From Planctomycetota bacterium (GTDB lineage: Bacteria; Planctomycetota; GCA-002687715; CAIWVZ01), in NCBI GenBank assembly GCA_044222185.1, contig JBGANV010000006.1:320001-384000 (forward strand): a stretch of 64,000 nt of DNA, given 5' to 3'. A program made the position numbers and the translations under genes. Below are positions 53,367 through 64,000 of the stretch, in pieces (position 1 is the first letter of the stretch; every line of letters starts with the position of its first letter). Below the pieces are notes generated by a model. The model ran no database searches, was not told the DNA's origin, and worked only from the letters and a program-made list of their open reading frames with translations.

Positions 53367-53521
53367 GAGCGGGAGCATGCGATCGCCGACGCGAGATGTC
53401 CAGAGGCGCTGGCTCCTGAACCGTAGACGCCGATGCCGGCTGTCGTGTTGCACGATTCGCGCGCTCCCTCCCGATTTCCGTGCTGCAAGTATCATGCGCC
53501 CACCCTGCCCGAACCGTTCCC

Positions 53522-55567
53522 ATGCCCGGAACGCTTCCATTCCATTCGTATCCCGCGCGTCTCGCGATCGCCGTGTGCCTCGTCTTCGCCGTGGCGAGTT
53601 TCGCGACGCTCTCGCTTGGCTCAGACCTCGCCGATCACGGCGTGATCACGAGCGACGCACGCGCGCTCGTCGCGGCCGAGCAACTCGCGAAGTCCGCGGG
53701 CGCCGCGTTGGGCGGACTGCAGGTCGAGGATGCGCGCCACGAGATCGGACTCGCGCCGTCGTGGTACGTGCGACACCCGAGCGGTGGCGTCGGCCTGCTG
53801 GCGGCGGTGCTGCGCGCGGGGGGTACGGTGGCGATGGTCCGCGCTGCGGCCATCATCGGTACGTCCCTCGCACTGCTCGCCTTCTTCCTCCTCGTCGAAC
53901 GGGCGACCGGCGACGCGCACCTGGCGCTCGCAGCCCAGCTCTTGCTCGCTGCGTTCCCGCCCGTGTTCCTCATCTCGGATTCGCTCCAATTTCACGCGCA
54001 GGCATTGTTTGCGAAGGCGGTCGCCTGCGCCTTCCTCGGCGTTGCGTGCACCATGACCGGGCGAGGGCGCGCGGTCGCGCTCGTGGGCGCGGCCGCGAGC
54101 GCGTTCTCCGCGATCGCGTGGCTCGGGCTCGAGACCCTCCCTGCCATCGGCCTGATGTCGGTCGTCGCACCGCTCATCCTCGGTTCGGGGGCGGTGCGGG
54201 GTCGCGTGCGCGACGCCGTCGTGTTCGGCTCGATCATCGCCGTCTCGATGGCCGGCGCAGCTCTGTGGCGGCTGTCGACGACGGCGGCGACGTGCGGGGG
54301 TACCGTCGGCGACGCCCTGGAGTCGGTGTTCGAGTCACTTCGCAAGCGTTCGGGGGACGGCGGTGGCGAATCGGGGGCCGAGCCCTACGCCGTCACCGTG
54401 CTGGCGCGCCTCGCGACGTTCGCGCCCGCGCACGTGGTCGTCGTGCTGCTCGGCGGCCTGGCGAGCGTGGTCCTGCGGCGTCGAGGCGGAGCGGGACGCG
54501 GCCCGCGACTCCTGATGGCGTTCGCGTCGTGCGAGTTGCCGTACTTCGCTGCCATGCGCGAACACGTCTGGAGCCACGCCCACACCGTCGTTCACGCAGG
54601 TTTCACCGTGGCGCTCGCGTCGGCGTTCGCGACGCAGCAGATCGCGCGGCTTCTTGGTCGACGGCTCGTGCCGGTTGCGTGGGTCGTGGTGCCCGTCGCC
54701 GCGGTTGCGGCGTGCGCCGCCATCGGCACGCTGACGACGTCGGGCGACCTCACGACCCCCGTCATGCGAGGGCCGACGGCGGCCCTCTCCGAGCGCTTCG
54801 ACGACGTGGCGGATCATCTGCCCTCCGACGCCGTCGTCGTCCTCGCGTCGGACGCGCCACCGGACTGGGCTCTCGCCATGTTCTGTGCCCGTCGCCACCT
54901 GACGTTCGTCGGGGCTGCCACGGGGCAGGCGCCGCCGCCACGGATGCTCCTCGGCGCGATCGGCCGCCTCACCGACCGACCGTGCTACGCGTTGACGCCG
55001 ACCGACGAATCCCAGCCGCTCTTCTGGGAGCTTCTGTTTCGCCACGCGTTCGTCGCGGGCAATGCGCGCTACTCGCTCTTCGCGGTCGCCAACGTGAGGG
55101 TGGCGGACTCTCGCAGCGGCGCCCGTACGCTCGATCCCGGCGACCTGCGCCTGGCGCGGCTCGTATCGCCGATGCTCTCGCTCCGTTACCCGCTTTTTCG
55201 CCGTTCGGGCACGGAGATGAATCTCCACGCACCGCCGCCGGCCGCCGGCGCGACGGTCGTGGAGATCCCGATGCCGGAGTCGCGGCACTCGATCGCGCGC
55301 GTCCGCGGTCGCTTTCGCTACCCGGCCAACCGGAACTTCGCCCAGCCGAGTCTCGACATCACCATCGAGGGCGTCGACGCCGAAGGGCGGCCCGTGTTCT
55401 CCTCGGAGGCGATGCGCATGAGCCCGGGCGACCCCGAATGCGAGGTCACCGCGGACTCCCGCGGTCATCATGACGCCACGCACCTGCGATTGCGGCTTGC
55501 GACGGCCCCCGGCTCGCAGAACAACTACGCGGCGAAGGTGACGTGCTCGTCGCTCGCGGTGGAGTGA
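53522..55567 (+). CDS. Polytopic membrane protein, possibly GT-C fold glycosyltransferase (ArnT/PMT-like)
   Basis: About 10-12 hydrophobic segments; WYVRHPSG loop after the first TM; soluble C-terminal region. Start uncertain. Confidence 0.55.
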   Translation: MPGTLPFHSYPARLAIAVCLVFAVASFATLSLGSDLADHGVITSDARALVAAEQLAKSAGAALGGLQVEDARHEIGLAPSWYVRHPSGGVGLLAAVLRAGGTVAMVRAAAIIGTSLALLAFFLLVERATGDAHLALAAQLLLAAFPPVFLISDSLQFHAQALFAKAVACAFLGVACTMTGRGRAVALVGAAASAFSAIAWLGLETLPAIGLMSVVAPLILGSGAVRGRVRDAVVFGSIIAVSMAGAALWRLSTTAATCGGTVGDALESVFESLRKRSGDGGGESGAEPYAVTVLARLATFAPAHVVVVLLGGLASVVLRRRGGAGRGPRLLMAFASCELPYFAAMREHVWSHAHTVVHAGFTVALASAFATQQIARLLGRRLVPVAWVVVPVAAVAACAAIGTLTTSGDLTTPVMRGPTAALSERFDDVADHLPSDAVVVLASDAPPDWALAMFCARRHLTFVGAATGQAPPPRMLLGAIGRLTDRPCYALTPTDESQPLFWELLFRHAFVAGNARYSLFAVANVRVADSRSGARTLDPGDLRLARLVSPMLSLRYPLFRRSGTEMNLHAPPPAAGATVVEIPMPESRHSIARVRGRFRYPANRNFAQPSLDITIEGVDAEGRPVFSSEAMRMSPGDPECEVTADSRGHHDATHLRLRLATAPGSQNNYAAKVTCSSLAVE

Positions 55568-55604: not shown

Positions 55605-58553
55605 TCACAGACCGAGCACGAGTCGCAACGCGTTCGACGCCCACAGCGTGTTCGACGGGACATCGACGAGAATCGACTGAACCTCCACGAACCCTCCGAT
55701 CAGCGACGGTTGAGCCGGAATGGAGAGCGGCATCTCCGCCCAACCTTCATCCGAGGGGTTCATGGGGAAAGTCAGCGTGGGCGTGACGAGCAGGTTGCAG
55801 GTCGACGATCCCGGCAGCAAGAGCGGCGCGCTCAACGGCGTGTAGCCCATGGCCAGGACACCCGCGGTTGAACCGACACCCGCGCCGCCGAGGAGCAGCG
55901 TGACGGTCGCGCCGATTCGCGGAACTCCGGTGACCGTGAGGTTCGCCGTCGTCGCGCCCGCACCGGCCCATCCGTATCGGAACTTCCACTGCCGGATCCG
56001 GACGAAGCCGGGGAGCATCTGGTACGGAGTGTTGTTCAGCTCGAACCATGTGCCCGCAGCCGTCGGCGCCCAGACCCAATACGGGCTCGTCGAGTTTCCG
56101 CACACCGAGCTGATGAACCACGGGGCCGCGTTCCACTGCGAGAGCGACACGAAACGATCGTCCCACCAGCGCATCTTCGCGGGGAAATGCAGCACGAGGA
56201 AGCGCGGACTTCCGGACACGACGGCGATCTGCCCGCTCATGTATCCGCCGCCCGCCGGGTAGTACGCACGCCCGACGCCGAGCACGTTCGGGCCTGGGAA
56301 GACGCTCGGCACCGGGCAGTTGCCCGAACCGCTGACATCGCGGACCTCGCAGTCCATGTAGCCATCGCATGGCGCGTCGACCCAGAACGAGAACGTGACC
56401 GTCTGTCCTGCGGCACCGCCCAGGATATCGAAGGCACGCGTCCCCACGTCCTCGGCCCAGAGACCGCAGAACGGCGCGCTCGCGCAGTCGTTCGTGGTGA
56501 ACGTCTTCGCGGGCGCGATGGCGAGGTTCTCCGTATCGAGGGTCGCGGCTCCGACGAGTGGCCCGGTTCCGGTGCAGTTCGCGTTCACGTTGGGGAACAC
56601 GGGCTCGACGCGGGCGCCCGTCACGAACCCGCTCGGCGACGGCATGACGCACGTCGCGAGGGCCACTCGATCCGCCGCGACCGGCATCTGGATCGGTATG
56701 ACGCGGATCGTGAACTGGCCGGACGTGGCGGCCGTGAACGTGGCACGTTCCCACGTTCGGCGCTTTCCGCCCGGCGCGGTTGCACCGACGACGAACGACG
56801 AACTCGTTGCGACCTCAGTGCCCGCGGGATCGATGACGCTCAGGTCGAAGTCCGACCAGTTCGGAGTCGCGGAGAAGTCGTTTCGGAACCACGCGATCGC
56901 GACGGAGACGACGTCGCCGCTCGTGACGTTCAGGGGGAACGACGTGACCGCGTTCGTCACCGTGGATTCGGAGGTCTGGAGCGACATCCTCTGCGCGTAG
57001 GCCGTGAGGTAGTCGGTGCGGAGGAACCCGGCGCCGTAGAGGTCGTCCGGCTTCACCGGATTCCCGTTGGCGGATCGGATGTCGAGCGCGGTCGCAAGGA
57101 GCGCCGCCCTCGTCATCAGCGCCGAACGGCCCGTGGGCGTGGTGCCCGAGTCCGGGCCTGCCCGGAAGAGGTAGCCGGCGCCCGCGACGTGCGGCGCGGA
57201 TAGCGACGTCCCCTCGTACGTCCGGCTTGCGGTCTCCGACACGTTGGAGGCGAGGACCGTGAGCGTGCCGACGGCCGTGATGTCGGGGTACGGGCGCTCG
57301 TAACCGAGTGGCGTCGGAAAGCTCCCACCCGACGTGCGCGACGGCGTCAACGGACCTCTCGCCGAGAAGTCGCTCACGTTGTGTGCGCAGGGTCCCGCCG
57401 ACCCCACCGCGAGCCCGTTGGCGGCGTACTGAGAATCCCACGAGCTGAACTGTCCCGTGTTCGCCGACGGAACGACGACGAGCACGTCGCCGACGGAGGC
57501 ACACGTGTCGAGTGCGACCTGCGTCGAGCTGAGCGGGCTCGGTTCTCCGCCGAACGAGTTCACGGCGACGACGATGTTCAGCGCGACCTTGTTCGCGAGT
57601 ACCCACTGCCATGCGGAGTCGAGGATGGCCGTCGTCGTGTACGGAATCCCTCCCGAGACGGCGTTTGCGATGTTGATGCCGACGATCTGCGACGCCGGCG
57701 CCTGGCCGTTGTCGGAGCCGACGTAGCTCGCCAGCGCGCCGCCGGCGATCGTGGCGATCGACAGCCCGTGGTCCGACGGGATGCCTGGCGATCCGGCCGC
57801 GAAGTCGACGGCTCCCGGCATCTGGACGTCCTGGAGGACGCGCGTCTGCAGCGAGAGGTTGCCTCCCTGGTAGAGCACCTGGTGGTGTCGGCGGGTCGCT
57901 GGCGGCGTCACGTAGTTCGAGTCGAGCTGGGAGTCCAGCACGGCGATGGACAAGCGGTTCGCGGCGTTTCGGCCGCCGGCACCCGTGAACCCGTTCGCCG
58001 CCGCAGCGTCCGAGTTGTGCCCGTTGACGCTCGTCGCGTCGATGAGGGGCCGCATGGCCGTTCCGGAGATCCGACGGTCCGGTGAGACGTCCGCGACCCA
58101 GGTGAGATTGCGCAGGCGATCCGCGCCCTCCGGCGAGGTCTCGACACACATCGCGTCGACGATCCACCAGCTTTCGGCGACCCGGCCACCGAACGACTCG
58201 ATCGTCGTGACGAACTCCGCGCGCTCGCGCGTCACGGTCGCTTCGAGGTCGGCGACCGCCGCCTCGACCGTCTGTGGAACGCCGCTCCGGATGGCCGCTC
58301 GGAGTGCGGCGAAATCGCGGCCCGGGCCTGCGAGCCGCACGATCCACCGGTACGTGCCCGCACGCTCACCGGAGATCAGTCCGGTTTCGTGCGGCACCGC
58401 GACGTGGTCGGTGCGCGTTGGTGACTGGGTGGCCGTCGCCGACTGCGCACGCCCGTCGTCCGTCGCCAACCACGTGAAAGCCAGCGTGACGAGCAACCCG
58501 GCGTGGCGCAGCCATCGCCGAGTGGAGGAAGAGAACCGTCGATCCGAATGCAT
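55605..58553 (-). CDS. Secreted S8 subtilisin-like peptidase with C-terminal domain (type B)
   Basis: IAVLDS, DHG, GTSLSAPHVAG; signal peptide and I9-like propeptide. Confidence 0.87.
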   Translation of the reverse strand: MHSDRRFSSSTRRWLRHAGLLVTLAFTWLATDDGRAQSATATQSPTRTDHVAVPHETGLISGERAGTYRWIVRLAGPGRDFAALRAAIRSGVPQTVEAAVADLEATVTRERAEFVTTIESFGGRVAESWWIVDAMCVETSPEGADRLRNLTWVADVSPDRRISGTAMRPLIDATSVNGHNSDAAAANGFTGAGGRNAANRLSIAVLDSQLDSNYVTPPATRRHHQVLYQGGNLSLQTRVLQDVQMPGAVDFAAGSPGIPSDHGLSIATIAGGALASYVGSDNGQAPASQIVGINIANAVSGGIPYTTTAILDSAWQWVLANKVALNIVVAVNSFGGEPSPLSSTQVALDTCASVGDVLVVVPSANTGQFSSWDSQYAANGLAVGSAGPCAHNVSDFSARGPLTPSRTSGGSFPTPLGYERPYPDITAVGTLTVLASNVSETASRTYEGTSLSAPHVAGAGYLFRAGPDSGTTPTGRSALMTRAALLATALDIRSANGNPVKPDDLYGAGFLRTDYLTAYAQRMSLQTSESTVTNAVTSFPLNVTSGDVVSVAIAWFRNDFSATPNWSDFDLSVIDPAGTEVATSSSFVVGATAPGGKRRTWERATFTAATSGQFTIRVIPIQMPVAADRVALATCVMPSPSGFVTGARVEPVFPNVNANCTGTGPLVGAATLDTENLAIAPAKTFTTNDCASAPFCGLWAEDVGTRAFDILGGAAGQTVTFSFWVDAPCDGYMDCEVRDVSGSGNCPVPSVFPGPNVLGVGRAYYPAGGGYMSGQIAVVSGSPRFLVLHFPAKMRWWDDRFVSLSQWNAAPWFISSVCGNSTSPYWVWAPTAAGTWFELNNTPYQMLPGFVRIRQWKFRYGWAGAGATTANLTVTGVPRIGATVTLLLGGAGVGSTAGVLAMGYTPLSAPLLLPGSSTCNLLVTPTLTFPMNPSDEGWAEMPLSIPAQPSLIGGFVEVQSILVDVPSNTLWASNALRLVLGL

Positions 58554-58882
58554 GGCGAACGCTCCTGATGATGTCCGGTGAGAACGTCGTGGTCATTCGC
58601 GGGAGGTCCGAACACTCGAAGACGTCACGGGAATCCGCCGCGGCGCAGCTGGCGCGTTGAGCGAACGTCGTGAATGCACGCCATTACGCCGCCGCACGTG
58701 ACGTCTTCCGACGCTCGGTCCTTCGCCCATGTGGTGACGGATCGATCTCGCGACCGCCGTGCGATCACGCAGTCAGCAGGCACCTTCCCGATTTCGCGCC
58801 GATCGAAGGAGCGGCGGGTGTCGTCGCAGCGGCCTCGGCTGGGGAGTCGCGAGTCGACGAAGACACCTGCGGAGCACGCCGG

Positions 58883-60403
58883 TCAGTCGCGGCGCACGAT
58901 CGCGGCCGCGCGCGCCATGGCGTCGACCTTCGCCGCGGCAACGGCCGCCGAAGCGACGGGATTGGCCGCGAAGGTCGCGAATCCGCAGTCGGAATTCAGG
59001 AGCACGCGCTCGCGGCCGAATCGATCGATCGCGCGTCGTGCCTTCGTCACGATCTCGTCCACGTCCTCGACGCGATCGGCGCGGGGATTCACCACGCCGA
59101 CTCCGATGCGCTTGTCCGACGGGATGGCGCGAAGCGCGTCGATCTCGCCGGAGCGCGGCGTCGACAGTTCGAGGAGGAGCGTGCCCACGGCAGCATCCTT
59201 CAGGAACGGCAGCAGGGGTTCATAGCCGCCCGTGAGGAGTGCCGCCTCGTCCTTGGTCCAGTTTCCCCGGCAGATGTGCAGGGCGACACGCTCGCGGGGG
59301 AAGCCGGCCGTCAGTTCGGCGATGAGGTCTCGCGCGAACCCGAGCTCGGTCGACGCGTCGCCCTTTTCGCTCAGGGCTCCGCACATGAAGCTGCGCTTCT
59401 GCTTGGGCCCGGTGAAGACGACCTCGGAGAGGACGGGCTCGTCGAACTGCACGAGGGGCGCTCCGGCCGCGAGGAGTGTCGCGAGTTCTTCGCGCAACAC
59501 ACGGACGACGTCCCGGGCGAGTTCGTCGCGCGTCTCGTAGGCGCGATTGGTCAGGCACTCGAGCCACATGGTGCGCGTCAAGAGGTATGGGCCCGGCAGC
59601 GCCACCTTCACGGGCTTGGACGTGATCGTCATCGCAAACGCCCATTCGTCGAAGACGATGGGGCGCGAGCGCCCGAGCTTGCCGAACACCACGGGGTGAC
59701 GGACGTCCTGCGCCGGCACGTCGAGGGCGCGGAGCTCGGCCTGGAACTCCTCCGGGTCGTCGACCATCGCCGCCAGGTCCGCCAGGGGAATGAGCTGGCA
59801 GTTGTCCAGTCGCCCGCCGACGAAGCTGGCGTAGCTGTCACGGCGCTGCTCGCCGTCGGTGATGACGTCCGCGCCCGCGGTGAGCTGGGCCTGCATCGCG
59901 AGGCGGACCGCGTCGTCACCCGTCGTGGAGAATTCCACGTCGCTCATCCGGCCCGTCATGTGATCGGCGATCGCCTGGATCATCCACCGAGGCCGCGGCC
60001 AGCTACCCATTCCCATGACCGACAGCGGCGCGATCGCAACCGCCGGCGCGGGCCGCGGAAGGTCGCGCAGGATCGTCACGGGCTGCACCAGCGGCGACGC
60101 AGCCGCGCGGGCCGGGGCCTTCGGCTCGGCCGCCGGTCTCTCGGCCAGCGCTCCCTTGCACACGAGGAAGCTGCGCTGCCTTCCCGCTTTGGTGACGGAG
60201 ACGAGTTCGTTCCCCGTCATCCGGCACCAGGACGGGAGATCCTCGTCGACCGAGATCTCGGTCGAGCGGATCTCGAGCAGTTGGCCCCGCTCCATGGGGT
60301 CGATGTGCTTGCGGATGAGCAGGAGGAGCCCGTTGCCGCAGTCGAGGTCGCCGCCATCGAACGAGACGTCAGGGGCGAGCGCGTGGCGGGCTGTGGGCTC
60401 CAT
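58883..60403 (-). CDS. TusA-like domain fused to cobalamin-independent methionine synthase II (core MetE) catalytic domain
   Basis: N-terminal DGGDLDCGNGLL...DLPSWCRMTG; MetE-type GSWPRP, TDGEQRR, QFDEP and Zn ligands HIC, E, NSDCGF. Confidence 0.88.
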   Translation of the reverse strand: MEPTARHALAPDVSFDGGDLDCGNGLLLLIRKHIDPMERGQLLEIRSTEISVDEDLPSWCRMTGNELVSVTKAGRQRSFLVCKGALAERPAAEPKAPARAAASPLVQPVTILRDLPRPAPAVAIAPLSVMGMGSWPRPRWMIQAIADHMTGRMSDVEFSTTGDDAVRLAMQAQLTAGADVITDGEQRRDSYASFVGGRLDNCQLIPLADLAAMVDDPEEFQAELRALDVPAQDVRHPVVFGKLGRSRPIVFDEWAFAMTITSKPVKVALPGPYLLTRTMWLECLTNRAYETRDELARDVVRVLREELATLLAAGAPLVQFDEPVLSEVVFTGPKQKRSFMCGALSEKGDASTELGFARDLIAELTAGFPRERVALHICRGNWTKDEAALLTGGYEPLLPFLKDAAVGTLLLELSTPRSGEIDALRAIPSDKRIGVGVVNPRADRVEDVDEIVTKARRAIDRFGRERVLLNSDCGFATFAANPVASAAVAAAKVDAMARAAAIVRRD

Positions 60404-60418
60404 GTGCGATCGTGACCT

Positions 60419-60784
60419 TCAGTAGCAGACGCTCGGGGAGCCGTCGCTCAACCACTCGACGAGCTTGGCGCCGCCGACGATCGTCGCACCGGCGACGAGG
60501 TTGTTCTCGTCCAGCTTGCGCCGCTTGAAGCACGGTGAGCAGACGTAGATCTTGCCTCCGCCCTTCGCGAAGTTGTCCATGAGGTCCTTCAGCGGGGCGA
60601 AACCCTCTTCGCGGATGTCGTCCGCATAGCCCTTGCTCCCGACACGCACGCCTTCGGTGCTGAGGAACACCATGGTGTCCTTTCCGCTGCCGAGCGCGGC
60701 GGACGCGACGACGAACGCCACGGTCGCCTTGTCGGGGTTGTCTTTCGCGTGATTCAGCGTGACGCAGAACTTCGTTGCGGCCAT
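60419..60784 (-). CDS. DsrE/DsrF-like family protein
   Basis: VFLSTEGV, KIYVCSPC, GATIVGGAKLVEW; 121 aa. Confidence 0.85.
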   Translation of the reverse strand: MAATKFCVTLNHAKDNPDKATVAFVVASAALGSGKDTMVFLSTEGVRVGSKGYADDIREEGFAPLKDLMDNFAKGGGKIYVCSPCFKRRKLDENNLVAGATIVGGAKLVEWLSDGSPSVCY

Positions 60785-60786
60785 CG

Positions 60787-61020
60787 TCAGTCTCCCGGTC
60801 GTTGGATCCAGTAGTCAGGGTGCTCGTGCTCGATCAGTGGGTGATTCGTCATGCGGCACCAGGCGGGAATGTCCTCTCGGGCGCCCGGGTCACGTGCAAC
60901 GAGGTGGAGCACTTGACCCTTTCCGAGTCCGCGGACGCGCATGAGCAGTTCGAGAACCAGTTCTCCGCAGCCCATGTCGCCCGCGTTCCATTCCGCATGT
61001 TCCGTCGGTCGCGTGTTCAT
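60787..61020 (-). CDS. Sulfurtransferase TusA/SirA-family protein
   Basis: AGDMGCGELVL, GQVLHLVARDPGAREDIPAWC; 77 aa. Confidence 0.85.
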   Translation of the reverse strand: MNTRPTEHAEWNAGDMGCGELVLELLMRVRGLGKGQVLHLVARDPGAREDIPAWCRMTNHPLIEHEHPDYWIQRPGD

Positions 61021-62177
61021 TTCGCTTCGACACTTTGCGCGTAGGTCAGCTTGCGCGTCCAGCCGTCTTTTTCCGGATGCGCCTTGCCGTCCACTTCGAC
61101 GTAGGCCTTCGGCAGCGCGTTCACGACGCCGCCGTTGGCGTCCGGCTTGGGATCGAGCACGAGGTCGCGGCCGGACGAGAACTTCACACGGCGTTCCTCC
61201 AGGTTGCCGAAGTAATAGGCGACCTTCTGAGGATCGGCGCCGGCGTAGCCGTCGGCCGTCGTGCGGCGAACCTTCTCGTCGTTGTCCGCGTCGATCTTGA
61301 AGTCACCCACGAAGATGTCGGCGACGGCGACGTCGTGGGGGATCCAGCCCAGGCCCTCGGCGTAGAACTCGGGCCAGCAGTGGTAGCTCGAGTCCACGTC
61401 CTTCCCGTCCAGCTCCTTCTTCAGGAACACGCCGTAGACGATGCGCGTCGGAATCCCCTTGGCTCGGGCGATCGATGCCCACAGGGAATGGAAGTCAGTG
61501 CAGTTCCCCGTCTTGTTCGTGAGGCAGTAGTCCGTGCTGCCGACCGGGGAGGCCTTCTTGTTCTTGGGGTCCTTCACCCAGTAGTCCACGTTCTGGAGCT
61601 CCCAGTCGTAGATCTTGTGCGCCGCGATGACGGGATTGGTCTCGTCACCGACGATCTCGTTCGCGAGTTTCGAGATGCGATCGTCGATGATCACGTGTTG
61701 GTTCGGCGCCAGGTAGGCCGCCAGTCGCGCTCGGTCGTCCGCCGAAAGTGCATGCGCCTTGGAGGGGTCGGCGTTCGCGTTCACCTCGCGCCGCACGACG
61801 CGGAACGTCTCGACGATGGTGAAGTCCTTCACCGTCGGGTTCGACATCTCGGCGTACACGACGTCGTTTCCGGCCGAGTCCTGCGTCGTGCGCCACGTCG
61901 CCGGAGTCTCGACCTTGAAGTTGGAGATCGTCTGCGCGGGGTCCGATTGCGGCATGGCGAACCAGACACGGACCTTCTTGGCGCCGTCGGGGACCATGAC
62001 CTTCAGCTCGTGCCGGACGTCGAAGGATGCGGACTTTCCGTACGTGGTCGACGACGCGTTCTGTGCATCGTCCGCCGACGTCGAGCTCGATGTCGATGAA
62101 CACGCCGAGAAGCTGGAGCCGAGGACCAGGACGGAGACCAGGCCTGAGAGCATGAGCGGAAGAGGACGCGAGCGCAT
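61017..62177 (-). CDS. Transglutaminase-like domain lipoprotein
   Basis: Lipobox FSAC; GNCTDFH (Cys), YHCWPEFY (His), WIPHD (Asp); AGGAGG RBS. Confidence 0.88.
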   Translation of the reverse strand: MRSRPLPLMLSGLVSVLVLGSSFSACSSTSSSTSADDAQNASSTTYGKSASFDVRHELKVMVPDGAKKVRVWFAMPQSDPAQTISNFKVETPATWRTTQDSAGNDVVYAEMSNPTVKDFTIVETFRVVRREVNANADPSKAHALSADDRARLAAYLAPNQHVIIDDRISKLANEIVGDETNPVIAAHKIYDWELQNVDYWVKDPKNKKASPVGSTDYCLTNKTGNCTDFHSLWASIARAKGIPTRIVYGVFLKKELDGKDVDSSYHCWPEFYAEGLGWIPHDVAVADIFVGDFKIDADNDEKVRRTTADGYAGADPQKVAYYFGNLEERRVKFSSGRDLVLDPKPDANGGVVNALPKAYVEVDGKAHPEKDGWTRKLTYAQSVEAK

Positions 62178-62398
62178 GAGACCTCCTGTGGGAGTTGCGG
62201 GAGCGAGGAGTGCGAACGCAAGGCGCGGGTGACCGGGCGGGAGCGAGCGTCGTACGTCGGTGTGCCAGGGTGGGCGCCGCGACGGTCGCGAGGTCGCGCC
62301 GACGTTCAGCGACGCGAATGGGATCGATGCGTGCGGAGAGCCTCTGAGTCGGAGGTCGGGTACGGATCGCTCCCGGCGAACGGCGCGAGCGCCTGGAG

Positions 62399-62446
62399 TC
62401 AGGTGAACCCCGTTCGACAGACGGTGATGATCGTCCCTCGTGTCAC
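62399..62446 (-). CDS. Putative 15-aa leader peptide MTRGTIITVCRTGFT
   Basis: GTG 10 nt after the -10 box of the predicted promoter; ends TGA; upstream of the sulfur-relay operon. Confidence 0.35.
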   Translation of the reverse strand: MTRGTIITVCRTGFT

Positions 62447-62456
62447 GCGGATGCCG

Positions 62457-62485
62457 CTTCTACACGACGGCGGGAGAAACTGCAA
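62457..62485 (-). promoter_or_regulatory. Sigma70-like promoter for the transglutaminase-TusA-DsrE-MetE operon
   Basis: TTGCAG-N17-TAGAAG on the minus strand. Confidence 0.5.
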
Positions 62486-62509
62486 CTTTTTCGCCGGTGC
62501 CGCGCCGAT

Positions 62510-64000
62510 CTACCGCGCGTCGCGCAGCGCCGCCTCGATCTCCGCCAGCAGACCCTTCACGGTGGCATCGTCCGGCAGGAGGCTGGCGGCCGTGCGCGCC
62601 TCGGCGAGGGCTCGCGTCAGCTCGCCGCGGCTTGCGAGCGCGATCGCAAGGTTGTGATGGGCGTCCCCGAGCTTGGGGTCGAGCTGCGTCGCCGCGGAGA
62701 ACTGGACGACGGCGGCATCGACGGCGCCGCGCCCGAGCATCAGGGCTCCGAGCTGAACGCGCAGGTCAGCGGCGTCCGGATCGAACCGGACGGCTTCGAT
62801 CAGATGCCGCTCGGCGGCGTCGCTCCGCCCCGCGGTGAACTCGCGTCGTCCGAGCACGCGGTGAAACTCTCCCAGGGCTCGGTGAACGCGCGGTTGCTCG
62901 AGGAGCCCCAGTCGCTCGGCGGCCGCGAGGTGATGGCGGATCCGCTCGGCCTCCGCGTCGTCGGCGAACGCGGACGCCTTCGCGGCGTCGAACGCGCGGA
63001 GCCCGAGGAAGGCGTGGTACCGAACGAATGCGGAGTGGATCGCGAGTGCCATCATGCCTGCAAATGCGGCCGCGAAGACGATCCCCGCCGCGCGCGTTCG
63101 CCCGCCGGACCGCAGCGGAATTCGCGCGAAGCGGACATCCTGGCCTCGCATCCACCGCACGAAGAGGACCGCCGCGAGCGATAGGACGATCGCGATCGTG
63201 ATCGAGAGAAAGAACGGGATGATGTCGTAGAGACCGCGGAGCACGGCGAGGAGCGCACAGAACAGCACGCCGAGCGCGAGGTCCTCGGGCCAGCTGAAGT
63301 CGTACAACCGCCGCACGGGCCGGGCCGGTCCAGCACTCGTGATGAGGCCGGGGAGGCCGACGCCGACGTAGAGACGCTGCTCCGGACAGACCGCGACGCA
63401 ATCGAGGTCCTTGAGGCACCTCGGGTCGACGATCGTGCCGTAGCGCGCGATCTCCTCGTGAACCCGGACGCGCGAGTCGCAAACCGACGTGCAGACGCCG
63501 CAACCGTCGCAGGAACCGCGAGCGCGGATCCGGACGGGCGCGAGTCTGTCGGCAAGTCCGAACACCGCCCCGTATGGGCAGGCGTAGTTGCAGAACGCGC
63601 GCGTTCCGAGGAAGTAGACGGCGGCGAATCCGACCGTGACGAAGGTGAGGATGGCGATTCCGGGCCCGGGCAGGTTGCGCGTGTAGTTCTCGGTCACGAA
63701 CGAGGCCCAGCCCTCCGCGTCACCGGCGACGCGGAAACCCGGCCACGGTCGCCCGGCCGCGATGCGTTCGACTTGCGGCCAGACGAACATGTACCCGGCG
63801 ACGGCGATGGGTATCCAGAGAAACACGCGGCTCCGGATCGGACGGGGAGGCACGTGAAGTTTGCGGAGGATCCACGCCGAGAGGTCCTGCAATGCCACGA
63901 TGTGACATCCCCAGCTGCAGAAGAACCGGCCGAAGATCAGCGTCGAGAGAATGGCGATCGCCATGAAGATGAACCCGGCCGTGACGATCCCGAGTTCGGC
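62510..64000 (-). CDS. Membrane 4Fe-4S binding protein (NosR/NapH/RdxA-like) with C-terminal TPRs, 5'-partial
   Basis: GRFFCSWGC, RAFCNYACPYG, CDGCGVCTSVC, CLKDLDCVAVCP; TM helices; TPRs. Frame open to the window end. Confidence 0.85.
   Translation of the reverse strand, partial: AELGIVTAGFIFMAIAILSTLIFGRFFCSWGCHIVALQDLSAWILRKLHVPPRPIRSRVFLWIPIAVAGYMFVWPQVERIAAGRPWPGFRVAGDAEGWASFVTENYTRNLPGPGIAILTFVTVGFAAVYFLGTRAFCNYACPYGAVFGLADRLAPVRIRARGSCDGCGVCTSVCDSRVRVHEEIARYGTIVDPRCLKDLDCVAVCPEQRLYVGVGLPGLITSAGPARPVRRLYDFSWPEDLALGVLFCALLAVLRGLYDIIPFFLSITIAIVLSLAAVLFVRWMRGQDVRFARIPLRSGGRTRAAGIVFAAAFAGMMALAIHSAFVRYHAFLGLRAFDAAKASAFADDAEAERIRHHLAAAERLGLLEQPRVHRALGEFHRVLGRREFTAGRSDAAERHLIEAVRFDPDAADLRVQLGALMLGRGAVDAAVVQFSAATQLDPKLGDAHHNLAIALASRGELTRALAEARTAASLLPDDATVKGLLAEIEAALRDAR

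Follow-up and report, generated by a model that had tools for sequence, protein, structure and literature searches.

The gene set analysed here recalls four described systems. It lies near one end of a 64,000-nucleotide stretch of DNA from a Planctomycetota bacterium (assembly GCA_044222185.1, contig JBGANV010000006.1, positions 320,001 to 384,000 of the forward strand; this whole stretch is hereafter the window), and its last gene fuses a TusA domain to a zinc barrel of the MetE type. The first of these systems is MesD (structure 3RPD), a core, i.e. folate-independent, methionine synthase made of a single (beta-alpha)8 barrel without the folate half, which is partnered by MesX (DUF1852), often coexists with MetH, and was delimited by Price et al. 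through a score of at least 390 BLASTp bits to ACIAD3523, about 55% identity (PMC7857596). The second comprises the DsrE3-TusA relays, in which adjacent dsrE3- and tusA-like genes encode sulfur carriers. CPXP is the characteristic active-site motif of TusA, its cysteine binding the sulfur (PMC11094781), and the cargo is thiosulfonate on DsrE3A and TusA of Metallosphaera (PMC4175335) and sulfane sulfur on DsrE3B/C and TusA (PMC11094781). In the third, the TusA-like protein YeeD of Escherichia coli partners the thiosulfate importer YeeE (PMC11073785), while the fourth is represented by the binding proteins HtxB (5ME4), for hypophosphite, and PtxB, for phosphite (PMC5700983).

Set against these systems, the window locus is a dedicated unit in which cysteine carriers are coupled, genetically and by fusion, to a MesD-like zinc barrel with an intact zinc and homocysteine site. 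The module thus forms a conserved, self-contained cytoplasmic relay of cysteines (of selenocysteine in some relatives) that ends in a homocysteine-binding zinc enzyme. It is conceivable, although we put it somewhat short of an even chance, that a MetE-type zinc barrel has here been turned from a methyltransferase into a homocysteine-acting chalcogen-transfer or redox enzyme, with a loop cysteine or selenocysteine, a TusA-DsrE(-OsmC) relay and lineage-specific uptake parts. In the window, the four minus-strand genes share one orientation and are tightly packed, their junctions being an ATGA overlap, a 2-nucleotide gap and a 15-nucleotide gap (table 1); the DNA junctions and the Pfam matches confirm this arrangement, which a preliminary description of the same sequence had proposed.

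Like MesD, the fusion has a single barrel without the folate half and the same four zinc ligands and three homocysteine residues. Unlike MesD, it carries two extra loops, with the invariant cysteines C202 and C341 (one of them a cysteine or selenocysteine), together with an N-terminal TusA domain, and its partners are TusA and DsrE rather than MesX; Price et al. 2021 (PMC7857596) mention neither TusA nor DsrE. The likeness to the DsrE3-TusA relays (PMC4175335, PMC11094781) lies in the adjacency of dsrE3- and tusA-like genes, in the YVC cysteine and in a TusA cysteine placed at the start of helix 1. In contrast with these relays, the TusA of the module shows C-G-x-G instead of CPxP, its DsrE has a second cysteine (CxxC), and the acceptor is a MetE-like barrel and not sHdr or DsrC. 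The hosts also differ from sulfur oxidizers, as they are mostly soil and freshwater heterotrophs, and the neighbouring genes included neither hdr nor dsr. With YeeE/YeeD (PMC11073785) the module shares, by analogy only, a TusA-family protein tied to the uptake of a sulfur oxyanion whose cargo would be processed on entry; its uptake parts differ, being an HtxB-like ATP-binding cassette (ABC) importer, unnamed membrane and periplasmic proteins or a lipoprotein, and DsrE and the zinc barrel follow.

The PF01717 match of the barrel spans residues 132-486 and reaches 94.5 bits (cut-off 21), and Meth_synt_1 scores 19.3 bits on the fusion, under its cut-off of 27, so that the N-terminal, folate-binding barrel of MetE is absent. 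The full-length MetE model TIGR01371 gives 71 bits against a cut-off of 930, and no NCBIfam equivalog cut-off is reached by the fusion, the best match being the archaeal-type methionine synthase model (151 versus 406 bits). A profile of 20 aligned fused homologues (mean column identity 77%) was compared with solved structures: 3RPD came first (E 1.9e-33; 119 bits, in two pieces), MetE structures followed at about 1e-19, and the N-terminal domain matched the E. coli TusA chains 1DCJ/3LVJ at E of about 1e-4. Judged from the 3RPD match, the fusion barrels may be a family separate from MesD.

In E. coli MetE, zinc is held by H641/C643/E665/C726 and homocysteine by S433/E484/D599 (PMC7857596); in the alignment to 3RPD, the corresponding residues of the fusion are H376/C378/E412/C473 and S134/E185/D321, respectively. 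All of these are invariant in 20/20 fused homologues, as are C22, C60, C202, C283 and C341. The codons of C22 (DCG), C60 (WCR), C202 (NCQ), C341 (FMCGAL), H376/C378 (HIC), E412 and C473 (DCG) were verified in the DNA. Retention of the zinc ligands, loss of the N-terminal MetE half, CG in place of CPxP in both TusA domains and a second WCR cysteine in each had all been read in the preliminary description, and all hold, the TusA codons included. The two stretches that the family has beyond 3RPD, at about residues 195-232 and 326-360, bear one invariant cysteine each (C202 and C341, respectively). As they follow the DGE and DEP strands, which hold substrate-binding residues, the usual architecture of such barrels indicates that they should sit on the catalytic face. 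An AlphaFold2 model built on the same alignment had a mean predicted local distance difference test (pLDDT) of 70.8 and a predicted template modelling score (pTM) of 0.67, with the barrel core and the TusA fold confident and pLDDT below 50 at residues 19-25 (the C22 loop), 92-111 (the linker), 189-241 (the C202 insert), 326-347 (the C341 insert) and 474-483 (after C473). Complex prediction of the barrel (120-506) with the TusA domain (1-95) scored 0.00 in two runs, made without control runs.

The invariance of S134, E185 and D321 argues that the amino-acid ligand of the barrel is most likely still homocysteine or methionine. The preliminary description had instead suggested a thioether other than methionine, made by a zinc alkyltransferase from TusA-bound sulfur in the manner of epoxyalkane:coenzyme M transferase. 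It is true that the barrel belongs to a superfamily of zinc enzymes that alkylate thiols, that the carriers are tightly coupled to it and that it falls far below every methionine-synthase equivalog cut-off. However, the three invariant residues speak for homocysteine or methionine as ligand and leave the unusual thioether without backing, and no gene for an alternative alkyl-substrate pathway recurs nearby; we regard this explanation as highly improbable.

The fusion is widespread. A search of 5.8 billion proteins, in which 8000 candidates were scored, returned at least 3978 matches at E <= 0.001. The best 120 of them measure 499-519 amino acids (aa), are 65-70% identical to the window protein over 96-100% coverage, and come from Burkholderiales, Betaproteobacteria, Verrucomicrobia and Planctomycetota metagenome-assembled genomes (MAGs); those that are named are always called '5-methyltetrahydropteroyltriglutamate--homocysteine methyltransferase'. 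Among species-representative genomes, one per species, at least 586 carry the fusion (586 of the 600 pattern matches listed were confirmed). From these carriers, 80 loci were taken across phyla, and their open reading frames (ORFs) were searched with the window proteins and then clustered. The set covers Burkholderiales, several alphaproteobacterial orders, Rokubacteria/Methylomirabilota, Acidobacteriota, Dehalococcoidia, Latescibacterota, Verrucomicrobia and Planctomycetota; cultured carriers are found in Duganella, Paraburkholderia, Caballeronia, Bordetella, Xanthobacter, Aquabacter, Reyranella, Nitrospirillum and Amaricoccus.

Across this set, a DsrE homologue is present in 73/80 loci and a stand-alone TusA in 69/80, nearly all of them upstream of the fusion and co-oriented with it. 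Five of the seven loci lacking DsrE have less than 1.7 kb of upstream sequence; the other two (L045 and L051) have room for the gene and yet lack it. The TusA-DsrE-fusion arrangement is more than chance. In two copies, the fusion gene occurs as two adjacent pieces (G386:C4:154-1639, minus strand, and L076:7598-9127, plus strand), which suggests a frameshift, a pseudogene or an assembly error.

The cysteines of the carriers are as constant as their position. In the stand-alone TusA, C18 is kept in 69/70 sequences and C55 in 68/70; in DsrE, C82 is kept in 73/76 and C85 in 74/76, C7 and C120 being variable. The sole significant solved relative of this DsrE is 3MC3 (E 6.5e-08), with the YVC cysteine aligned, and 3MC3 is the DsrE3A-type protein SSO1125 (Tanabe et al. 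2024, PMC11094781). The TusA copies are atypical because the active cysteine is kept and the residue next to it is glycine. Fusion and synteny are thus conserved and the TusA cysteines retained in the neighbourhood survey that the preliminary description had called for, and its central proposal, a dedicated and conserved pathway unit coupling TusA and DsrE carriers to a MetE-type zinc barrel, is borne out by the synteny and by the invariant cysteines.

A split sister form exists within the phylum of the window. Of 301 genomes of this phylum, 46 match the fusion at E <= 1e-60, 14 with the full fusion and 32 with the barrel only (E of about 1e-120, query residues of about 120-505). The split genes run from the transglutaminase through TusA, DsrE and a protein of about 245 aa to the barrel (about 385 aa). 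In the 12 split loci examined, the transglutaminase was found in 7/12 and TusA, DsrE and the 245-aa protein in 11/12 each, the barrel of L096 having a PhnD-like gene as its sole companion. The 245-aa protein consists of a TusA domain and an OsmC-like domain, its best NCBIfam match being 'OsmC-related (seleno)protein' (E 3.4e-10, below the cut-off); both TusA cysteines are kept in it (11/11 and 11/11) and the OsmC-type cysteine in 9/11. Depending on the form, the second TusA domain of the module therefore hangs on the barrel through a flexible linker or belongs to a separate TusA::OsmC-like protein whose gene lies just upstream. Two 251-aa 'TusA' ORFs (L055 and L061) were considered as further TusA::OsmC proteins and rejected, being over-extended ORFs of stand-alone TusA. 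The split barrels retain 'TFMC' and lack the DNCQ cysteine, a distribution from which it appears that C202 of the fused clade may stand in for the OsmC cysteine.

The split form also singles out C341. We read the barrel genes of 16 split-type copies (the 12 loci and four further ones) for TGA codons: at the FMC codon, an in-frame TGA was found in 5/16 (L090, L097, L100, L101 and L103), distributed over five different families of the phylum, and the other 11 have cysteine. With TGA read as U, the barrels of L097 and L090 are uninterrupted and contain 'HTFMUGVL' and 'RTFMUATL'. A six-frame motif scan of the loci gave 5 U against 91 C at this codon; at the TusA, DsrE, NCQ, HxC and DCG cysteines, the same scan gave no U, four other pattern matches lying out of context. 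SelA is above cut-off in 5/5 of the TGA-form genomes and SelD in 3/5, the remaining two (G196 and G251, 92 and 91% complete) having only weak AIRS-family matches for SelD. About 14 nucleotides past the UGA, L090 and L101 share a hairpin (ACCCGC-CGUGAU-GCGGGU); L097, L100 and L103 have no clear element, folding z-scores downstream of the UGA are unremarkable (-1.6 to +1.0), and Rfam SECIS-type models found no match on the five loci. The FMCGAL insert, which the preliminary description had listed as an extra cysteine, is in this way the most informative part of the protein: the alternation with selenocysteine leads us to conclude that residue 341 is a catalytic nucleophile or redox residue. Reviews of the prokaryotic selenoproteome list DsrE-like (UxxC) and OsmC-like selenoproteins, and a search by terms found neither 'homocysteine' nor 'MetE' in the two (PMC13188914, PMC9312934).

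Such a residue raises the possibility that the cysteines carry electrons, i.e. that the enzyme is a thiol-driven reductase in which Cys/Sec341 attacks an oxidized derivative of methionine or homocysteine at the zinc site, such as free methionine sulfoxide, S-sulfohomocysteine or a mixed disulfide of homocysteine. The sulfenate or disulfide so formed would be resolved by C202 (or the OsmC-like cysteine), with the TusA domain, the DsrE CxxC and free TusA next in line. Catalytic selenocysteine is typical of redox enzymes, methionine sulfoxide reductase A being a listed selenoprotein (PMC13188914). The retention of the DsrE CxxC (73-74/76), the 1-Cys OsmC-like domain of the split form, the two-Cys TusA copies without CPxP and the intact methionine/homocysteine pocket all agree with this possibility, which on the other hand leaves the oxyanion-type importer and the exported transglutaminase of the module (see below) unexplained. 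In addition, no electron source resembling thioredoxin reductase recurs nearby, a single pyridine-nucleotide disulfide oxidoreductase being present in L009 only, and we know of neither a reductase role for TusA or DsrE nor a catalytic role for zinc in the reduction of sulfoxides or disulfides. Electron transfer of this kind seems to us quite unlikely, less so than the thioether discussed above.

Uptake and envelope parts vary with the lineage: an ABC importer with an HtxB/PtxB-hybrid binding protein, a cysteine-rich membrane protein with a periplasmic one, or a transglutaminase-like lipoprotein, which a possible porin often accompanies. Inserts of two kinds stand between dsrE and the fusion in Proteobacteria. 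The type I insert encodes a PhnD-family binding protein, a PhnE-like permease and a PhnC-like ATPase (clusters in 23 and 28 loci), its proteins exceeding the PhnE and PhnC model cut-offs; in Rokubacteria loci, the transporter genes lie upstream of tusA. The binding protein matches HtxB (5ME4) at E 1.4e-82. Bisson et al. 2017 (PMC5700983) trace the specificity of HtxB to the ion pair R178-D206 and to F158, W52 and N128; the last three stand in the places of PtxB H160, Y55 and S130, respectively, through which PtxB holds the third phosphite oxygen. In the residue alignment, the type I protein shares W52, R178 and D206 with HtxB but differs from it by F158->H and N128->S, which restore donors of hydrogen bonds to a third oxygen, as in PtxB. 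This W-S-H-R-D pattern occurs in 18/22 matches, Rokubacteria loci included, the other four being truncated or divergent fragments, so the HtxB specificity set is incomplete in 18/18 full-length copies. The pattern corresponds to the 'hybrid' HtxB/PtxB class, to which Bisson et al. assign no ligand (PMC5700983). Given the PtxB-like histidine and serine, the pocket likely takes a small three-oxygen anion: phosphite, sulfite/bisulfite, selenite or perhaps thiosulfate. Unlike the htx and ptx systems, the module has no ptxD or htxA nearby; a link with phosphite oxidation was considered and dropped, as the neighbouring 2-hydroxyacid dehydrogenases are GhrA-like and not PtxD. More distant PhnD-family binding proteins stand beside two planctomycete copies (L076 and L096).

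Taken together, the importer, the carriers and residue 341 allow a tentative reading of the module, which we hold to be possible and rate well below an even chance: a sulfur atom from an imported oxyanion would be relayed to Cys/Sec341 and react there with zinc-bound homocysteine. The imported species would most likely be thiosulfate or sulfite, oxyanions shaped like phosphite, and would then be held on TusA and DsrE as sulfane sulfur or thiosulfonate; for such a capture step, the DsrE3-TusA relays and the YeeE/YeeD uptake pair may serve as precedents. The swinging TusA domain would hand the sulfur on to Cys/Sec341, where it would meet the zinc-activated sulfur of homocysteine (or of nascent homocysteine), and an S-S-linked homocysteine species would be made or resolved. 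The resolving thiols might be the DsrE CxxC and C202, whose part the OsmC-like cysteine would play in the split form. Thereby, the enzyme would move sulfur onto or off homocysteine without methyl transfer. More generally, we infer that what is transferred is not a methyl group but a chalcogen atom, or else reducing equivalents, and that it meets the homocysteine sulfur at Cys/Sec341.

Several points weigh against sulfur transfer to homocysteine. To our knowledge, a homocysteine persulfide or disulfide has no known use as a product. A CxxC motif, selenocysteine and an OsmC-like domain would all be expected of a relay for electrons (dithiol-disulfide) rather than of an atom carrier. Both TusA copies have glycine after the conserved cysteine (C-G-E-L in the stand-alone protein, C-G-N-G in the fused domain) and lack CPxP. 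The type I binding protein might just be a phosphite binder. The regions of low confidence in the structural model are exactly the cysteine-bearing loops. Upstream of the module, no sulfur-regulation motif or riboswitch was found, and the neighbouring genes are heterogeneous. A gap in homocysteine synthesis was looked for in the window genome and not seen, since this genome has four full-length Cys_Met_Meta_PP enzymes and a MetX-like gene. Finally, we found no paper on the TusA::MetE fusion family, subscription-only literature being outside the search, and the reaction is thus an inference.

Selenium could take the place of sulfur in the whole scheme. Imported selenite, itself shaped like phosphite, would be bound to the carriers as a selenotrisulfide or perselenide and given to the barrel, which would turn it into selenohomocysteine, selenomethionine or a Se-S adduct, or else into a form from which SelD can safely draw selenium. 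In favour of this, 5/16 split-type barrels are selenoproteins themselves; the OsmC-like domain, as reported above, best resembles an OsmC-related (seleno)protein, below cut-off; a 'putative selenate' model of binding proteins gives a weak match to the binding protein of the importer, at 77 bits where 250 are required; and a UxxC DsrE-like selenoprotein family is on record (PMC13188914). Selenocysteine nevertheless marks a catalytic residue and not a selenium substrate, and the cargo known from experiments on DsrE3/TusA is sulfur (PMC4175335, PMC11094781).

The distribution of SelD bears on the same question. In the window genome, SelD lies on another contig (G000:C14:427704-428624, locus L086) and contains one in-frame TGA, so that SelD is itself a selenoprotein and the organism of the window decodes selenocysteine. 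SelD was also found in 3/3 named carriers tested (the genomes of L002, L050 and L057), in 40/46 module genomes of the phylum and in 9/11 of those in a Burkholderiales sample. It is nearly as common without the module, however (180/255 and 221/290, respectively; the Burkholderiales tally of 230/301 includes one genome flagged as unpublished, G326), and this co-occurrence therefore does not discriminate. In eight module genomes, no SelD was detected (G018, G186, G196, G227, G251, G261, G408 and G440); those of the phylum are 82-94% complete and the two from Burkholderiales were selected at a completeness of 90% or more, and since G196 and G251 have SelA, SelD may be just unassembled there. A few Burkholderiales copies bring SelD close, at 2-7 kb from the module: at L017:5114-7649 (minus strand), a true SelD (521 bits) adjoins a gene for a cystathionine-beta-synthase-like pyridoxal phosphate enzyme 2-3 kb downstream of the module, this cluster recurring in L016, and on G583:C311 SelD lies about 7 kb away on the same contig. 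A selenium link of the module is possible and not demonstrated, and a pathway specific for selenium we consider unlikely.

A more conservative explanation is that the fusion is a fifth core methionine synthase, in which TusA and DsrE replace MesX or a corrinoid protein as methyl supplier or as reductant of the site. All catalytic and homocysteine-binding residues are invariant, the nearest solved relative is a MesD, and the best NCBIfam matches are methionine-synthase models, all far under their cut-offs. The known core enzymes, moreover, all receive methyl from a partner protein (Price et al. 2021, PMC7857596). The window genome contains MetH (1274 bits) and MetE was not found in it, so a B12-independent backup would make sense. 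Over the 301 genomes of the phylum, however, no complementarity was seen: MetH is present in 42/46 module genomes against 179/255 others, and MetE is rare in both groups (1/46 against 15/255); related genomes not being independent of one another, none of these tallies amounts to a statistical test. As MetH is usually present alongside, the module fills no gap left by the known synthases. Among the hosts of MesD, 78% likewise possess MetH or MetE (Price et al. 2021, PMC7857596), so that a methionine synthase without complementarity is conceivable.

The neighbourhood also speaks against it. No MesX, corrinoid protein, methyltransferase or other methyl-donor gene recurs in 271 neighbouring proteins (40 + 138 + 93), and PF08908 (DUF1852, MesX) has no match among them; in the window genome it has no match either, a result that is weak alone as the search control gave no signal. 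No riboswitch or other RNA was found in the window or in nine related loci, S-adenosylmethionine and B12 riboswitches included. A Cys/Sec thioether would be a poor methyl donor, and we know of no role of TusA or DsrE as methyl carriers. The probability that the module makes methionine from a methyl donor is in our view low, about that of the selenium pathway.

The remaining accessory parts are restricted to certain lineages. The type II insert takes the place of the ABC importer in nine loci of Alpha- and Betaproteobacteria and encodes two proteins without a Pfam or NCBIfam match (table 1); for the larger, an S-layer-like identity was considered and set aside, the leads from a protein atlas reaching only 0.87, under the trust level. 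The exported Cys-His-Asp enzyme, which the preliminary description had tentatively placed at the head of the pathway, stands in part. The transglutaminase recurs in the phylum of the window, its Cys226-His266-Asp282 triad is intact in 16/16 homologues, and most N-termini are, by eye, of the lipoprotein type. It does not belong to the core, since it is replaced by transporters outside this phylum: in the cross-phylum set, it occurs in 3/80 loci, L014 and L029 (Planctomycetota MAGs, the nearest named loci with the gene order of the window) and L037 (Thermoanaerobaculia). Among the other fused loci of the phylum, it is upstream and co-oriented in 6/13 (307-542 bits), or 7/14 counting the window, and two more of the 13 have weak transglutaminase-like matches elsewhere. 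It is thus a phylum-specific accessory of the module.

Upstream of the transglutaminase, 12/25 loci of the phylum (12 split and 13 fused) encode a protein of about 488 aa (e.g. L110:2731-4197, plus strand) that has a signal peptide and a coiled coil, ends in F after a beta-rich C-terminal part and lacks a Pfam match; the window contains no homologue of it. Our guess is that it forms an outer-membrane channel.

Table 1. Coordinates of the module, its key residues, its flanking genes and the type II insert. Positions refer to the window, except where a related locus (L050) is named.
Feature	Position	Strand	Description
Transglutaminase-like lipoprotein	61017..62177	-	386 aa; Transglut_core PF01841, E 1.2e-22
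Transglutaminase Cys26		-	lipobox
Transglutaminase C226	61500-61502	-	triad
Transglutaminase H266	61380-61382	-	triad
Transglutaminase D282	61332-61334	-	triad
Stand-alone TusA-like carrier	60787..61020	-	77 aa; TusA PF01206, 38.7 bits (cut-off 28.6)
Stand-alone TusA C18	60967-60969	-	C-G motif (C-G-E-L), not CPxP
Stand-alone TusA C55	60856-60858	-	WCR motif
DsrE3-like protein	60419..60784	-	121 aa; DsrE PF02635, E 1.6e-16, 60.9 bits
DsrE C82	60539-60541	-	YVC-S-P-C motif
DsrE C85	60530-60532	-	YVC-S-P-C motif
TusA::MetE-barrel fusion gene	58883..60403	-	506 aa; PF01206 residues 27-83 and Meth_synt_2 PF01717 residues 132-486
Fusion, N-terminal TusA domain	60119..60403	-	residues 1-95; PF01206 29.8 bits (cut-off 28.6)
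Fusion, Pro/Ala-rich linker	60029..60118	-	residues 96-125; length and sequence variable (columns 95-125 of the 20-homologue alignment)
Fusion, MesD-like single (beta-alpha)8 barrel	58883..60028	-	residues 126-506 and stop codon; PF01717 E 9.7e-27
Fusion C22	60338-60340	-	DCGNG motif, TusA domain
Fusion C60	60224-60226	-	WCR motif, TusA domain
Fusion C202	59798-59800	-	DNCQ, family-specific insert 195-232
Fusion C341	59381-59383	-	FMCGAL, family-specific insert 326-360; TGC codon in window gene
Fusion H376	59276-59278	-	zinc ligand, aligned with 3RPD
Fusion C378	59270-59272	-	zinc ligand, aligned with 3RPD
Fusion E412	59168-59170	-	zinc ligand, aligned with 3RPD
Fusion C473	58985-58987	-	zinc ligand, aligned with 3RPD
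NapH-like 4Fe-4S/TPR protein	62510-63964	-	484 aa; NapH-like 4Fe-4S domains and C-terminal TPR repeats
S8 subtilase	55605-58553	-	982 aa; Peptidase_S8 over residues 260-509
Type II small protein	L050:4782-5327		about 180 aa, membrane-associated, several cysteines including CIGC
Type II large protein	L050:5341-6933		about 530 aa, signal peptide, periplasmic, C-terminal anchor

On either side of the module, the window encodes a NapH-like protein and a subtilase. The NapH-like gene lies 333 bp upstream of the transglutaminase gene, and its ORF may run past the end of the window; the subtilase looks secreted and has a long C-terminal extension without a family match. No homologues of either were found beside any related locus examined, and both genes therefore lie outside the unit. 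Further along, at 53480-55567 (plus strand), a 695-aa ORF has no Pfam match at E <= 0.01 and an N-terminal half that is hydrophobic by eye. Within 58300-62700, no promoter-like site was found, and shuffled sequence yields terminator-like sites, of which two are present here, at least as often; of 62 upstream regions, none has an E. coli-type Pho box, and no 8-mer was enriched in 61 upstream regions.

Beside some related copies stand sulfatases, luciferase-like monooxygenases, an NMT1-type binding protein or LysR regulators, each in few loci. These families are believed to be generally abundant in the lineages that carry the module, and the case for a context of sulfur starvation drawn from the neighbouring genes is weak. 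In a Burkholderiales MAG, the fusion is followed after about 900 bp by a co-oriented gene for S-adenosylmethionine synthetase (L064:10060-11247, plus strand), the only methionine-cycle neighbour seen. In Amaricoccus solimangrovi, a protein of the UGSC family, named after a selenoprotein motif, is encoded about 1.6 kb upstream of the module (L074:860-2635, plus strand).

If the barrel has indeed become a chalcogen-transfer or redox enzyme acting on homocysteine, the module would represent a new route joining environmental sulfur or selenium oxyanions to the homocysteine/methionine pool, and PF01717 would be added to the families that contain selenoproteins, being unlisted in the reviews cited above as far as the search by terms shows (PMC13188914, PMC9312934). 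With at least 586 species-representative genomes and thousands of metagenomic proteins, 60-70% identical across phyla and annotated as ordinary 'MetE', a substantial number of methionine-synthase annotations would be wrong if the chemistry of the barrel has changed. The alternation of cysteine and selenocysteine singles out residue 341, and the HtxB/PtxB-hybrid binding proteins are given a functional setting. This sister family may also be a useful comparison for MesD, whose methyl donor has yet to be identified. The link between sulfur or selenium and homocysteine would, finally, become testable in hosts that are easy to work with, such as Duganella, Reyranella, Xanthobacter and Paraburkholderia.

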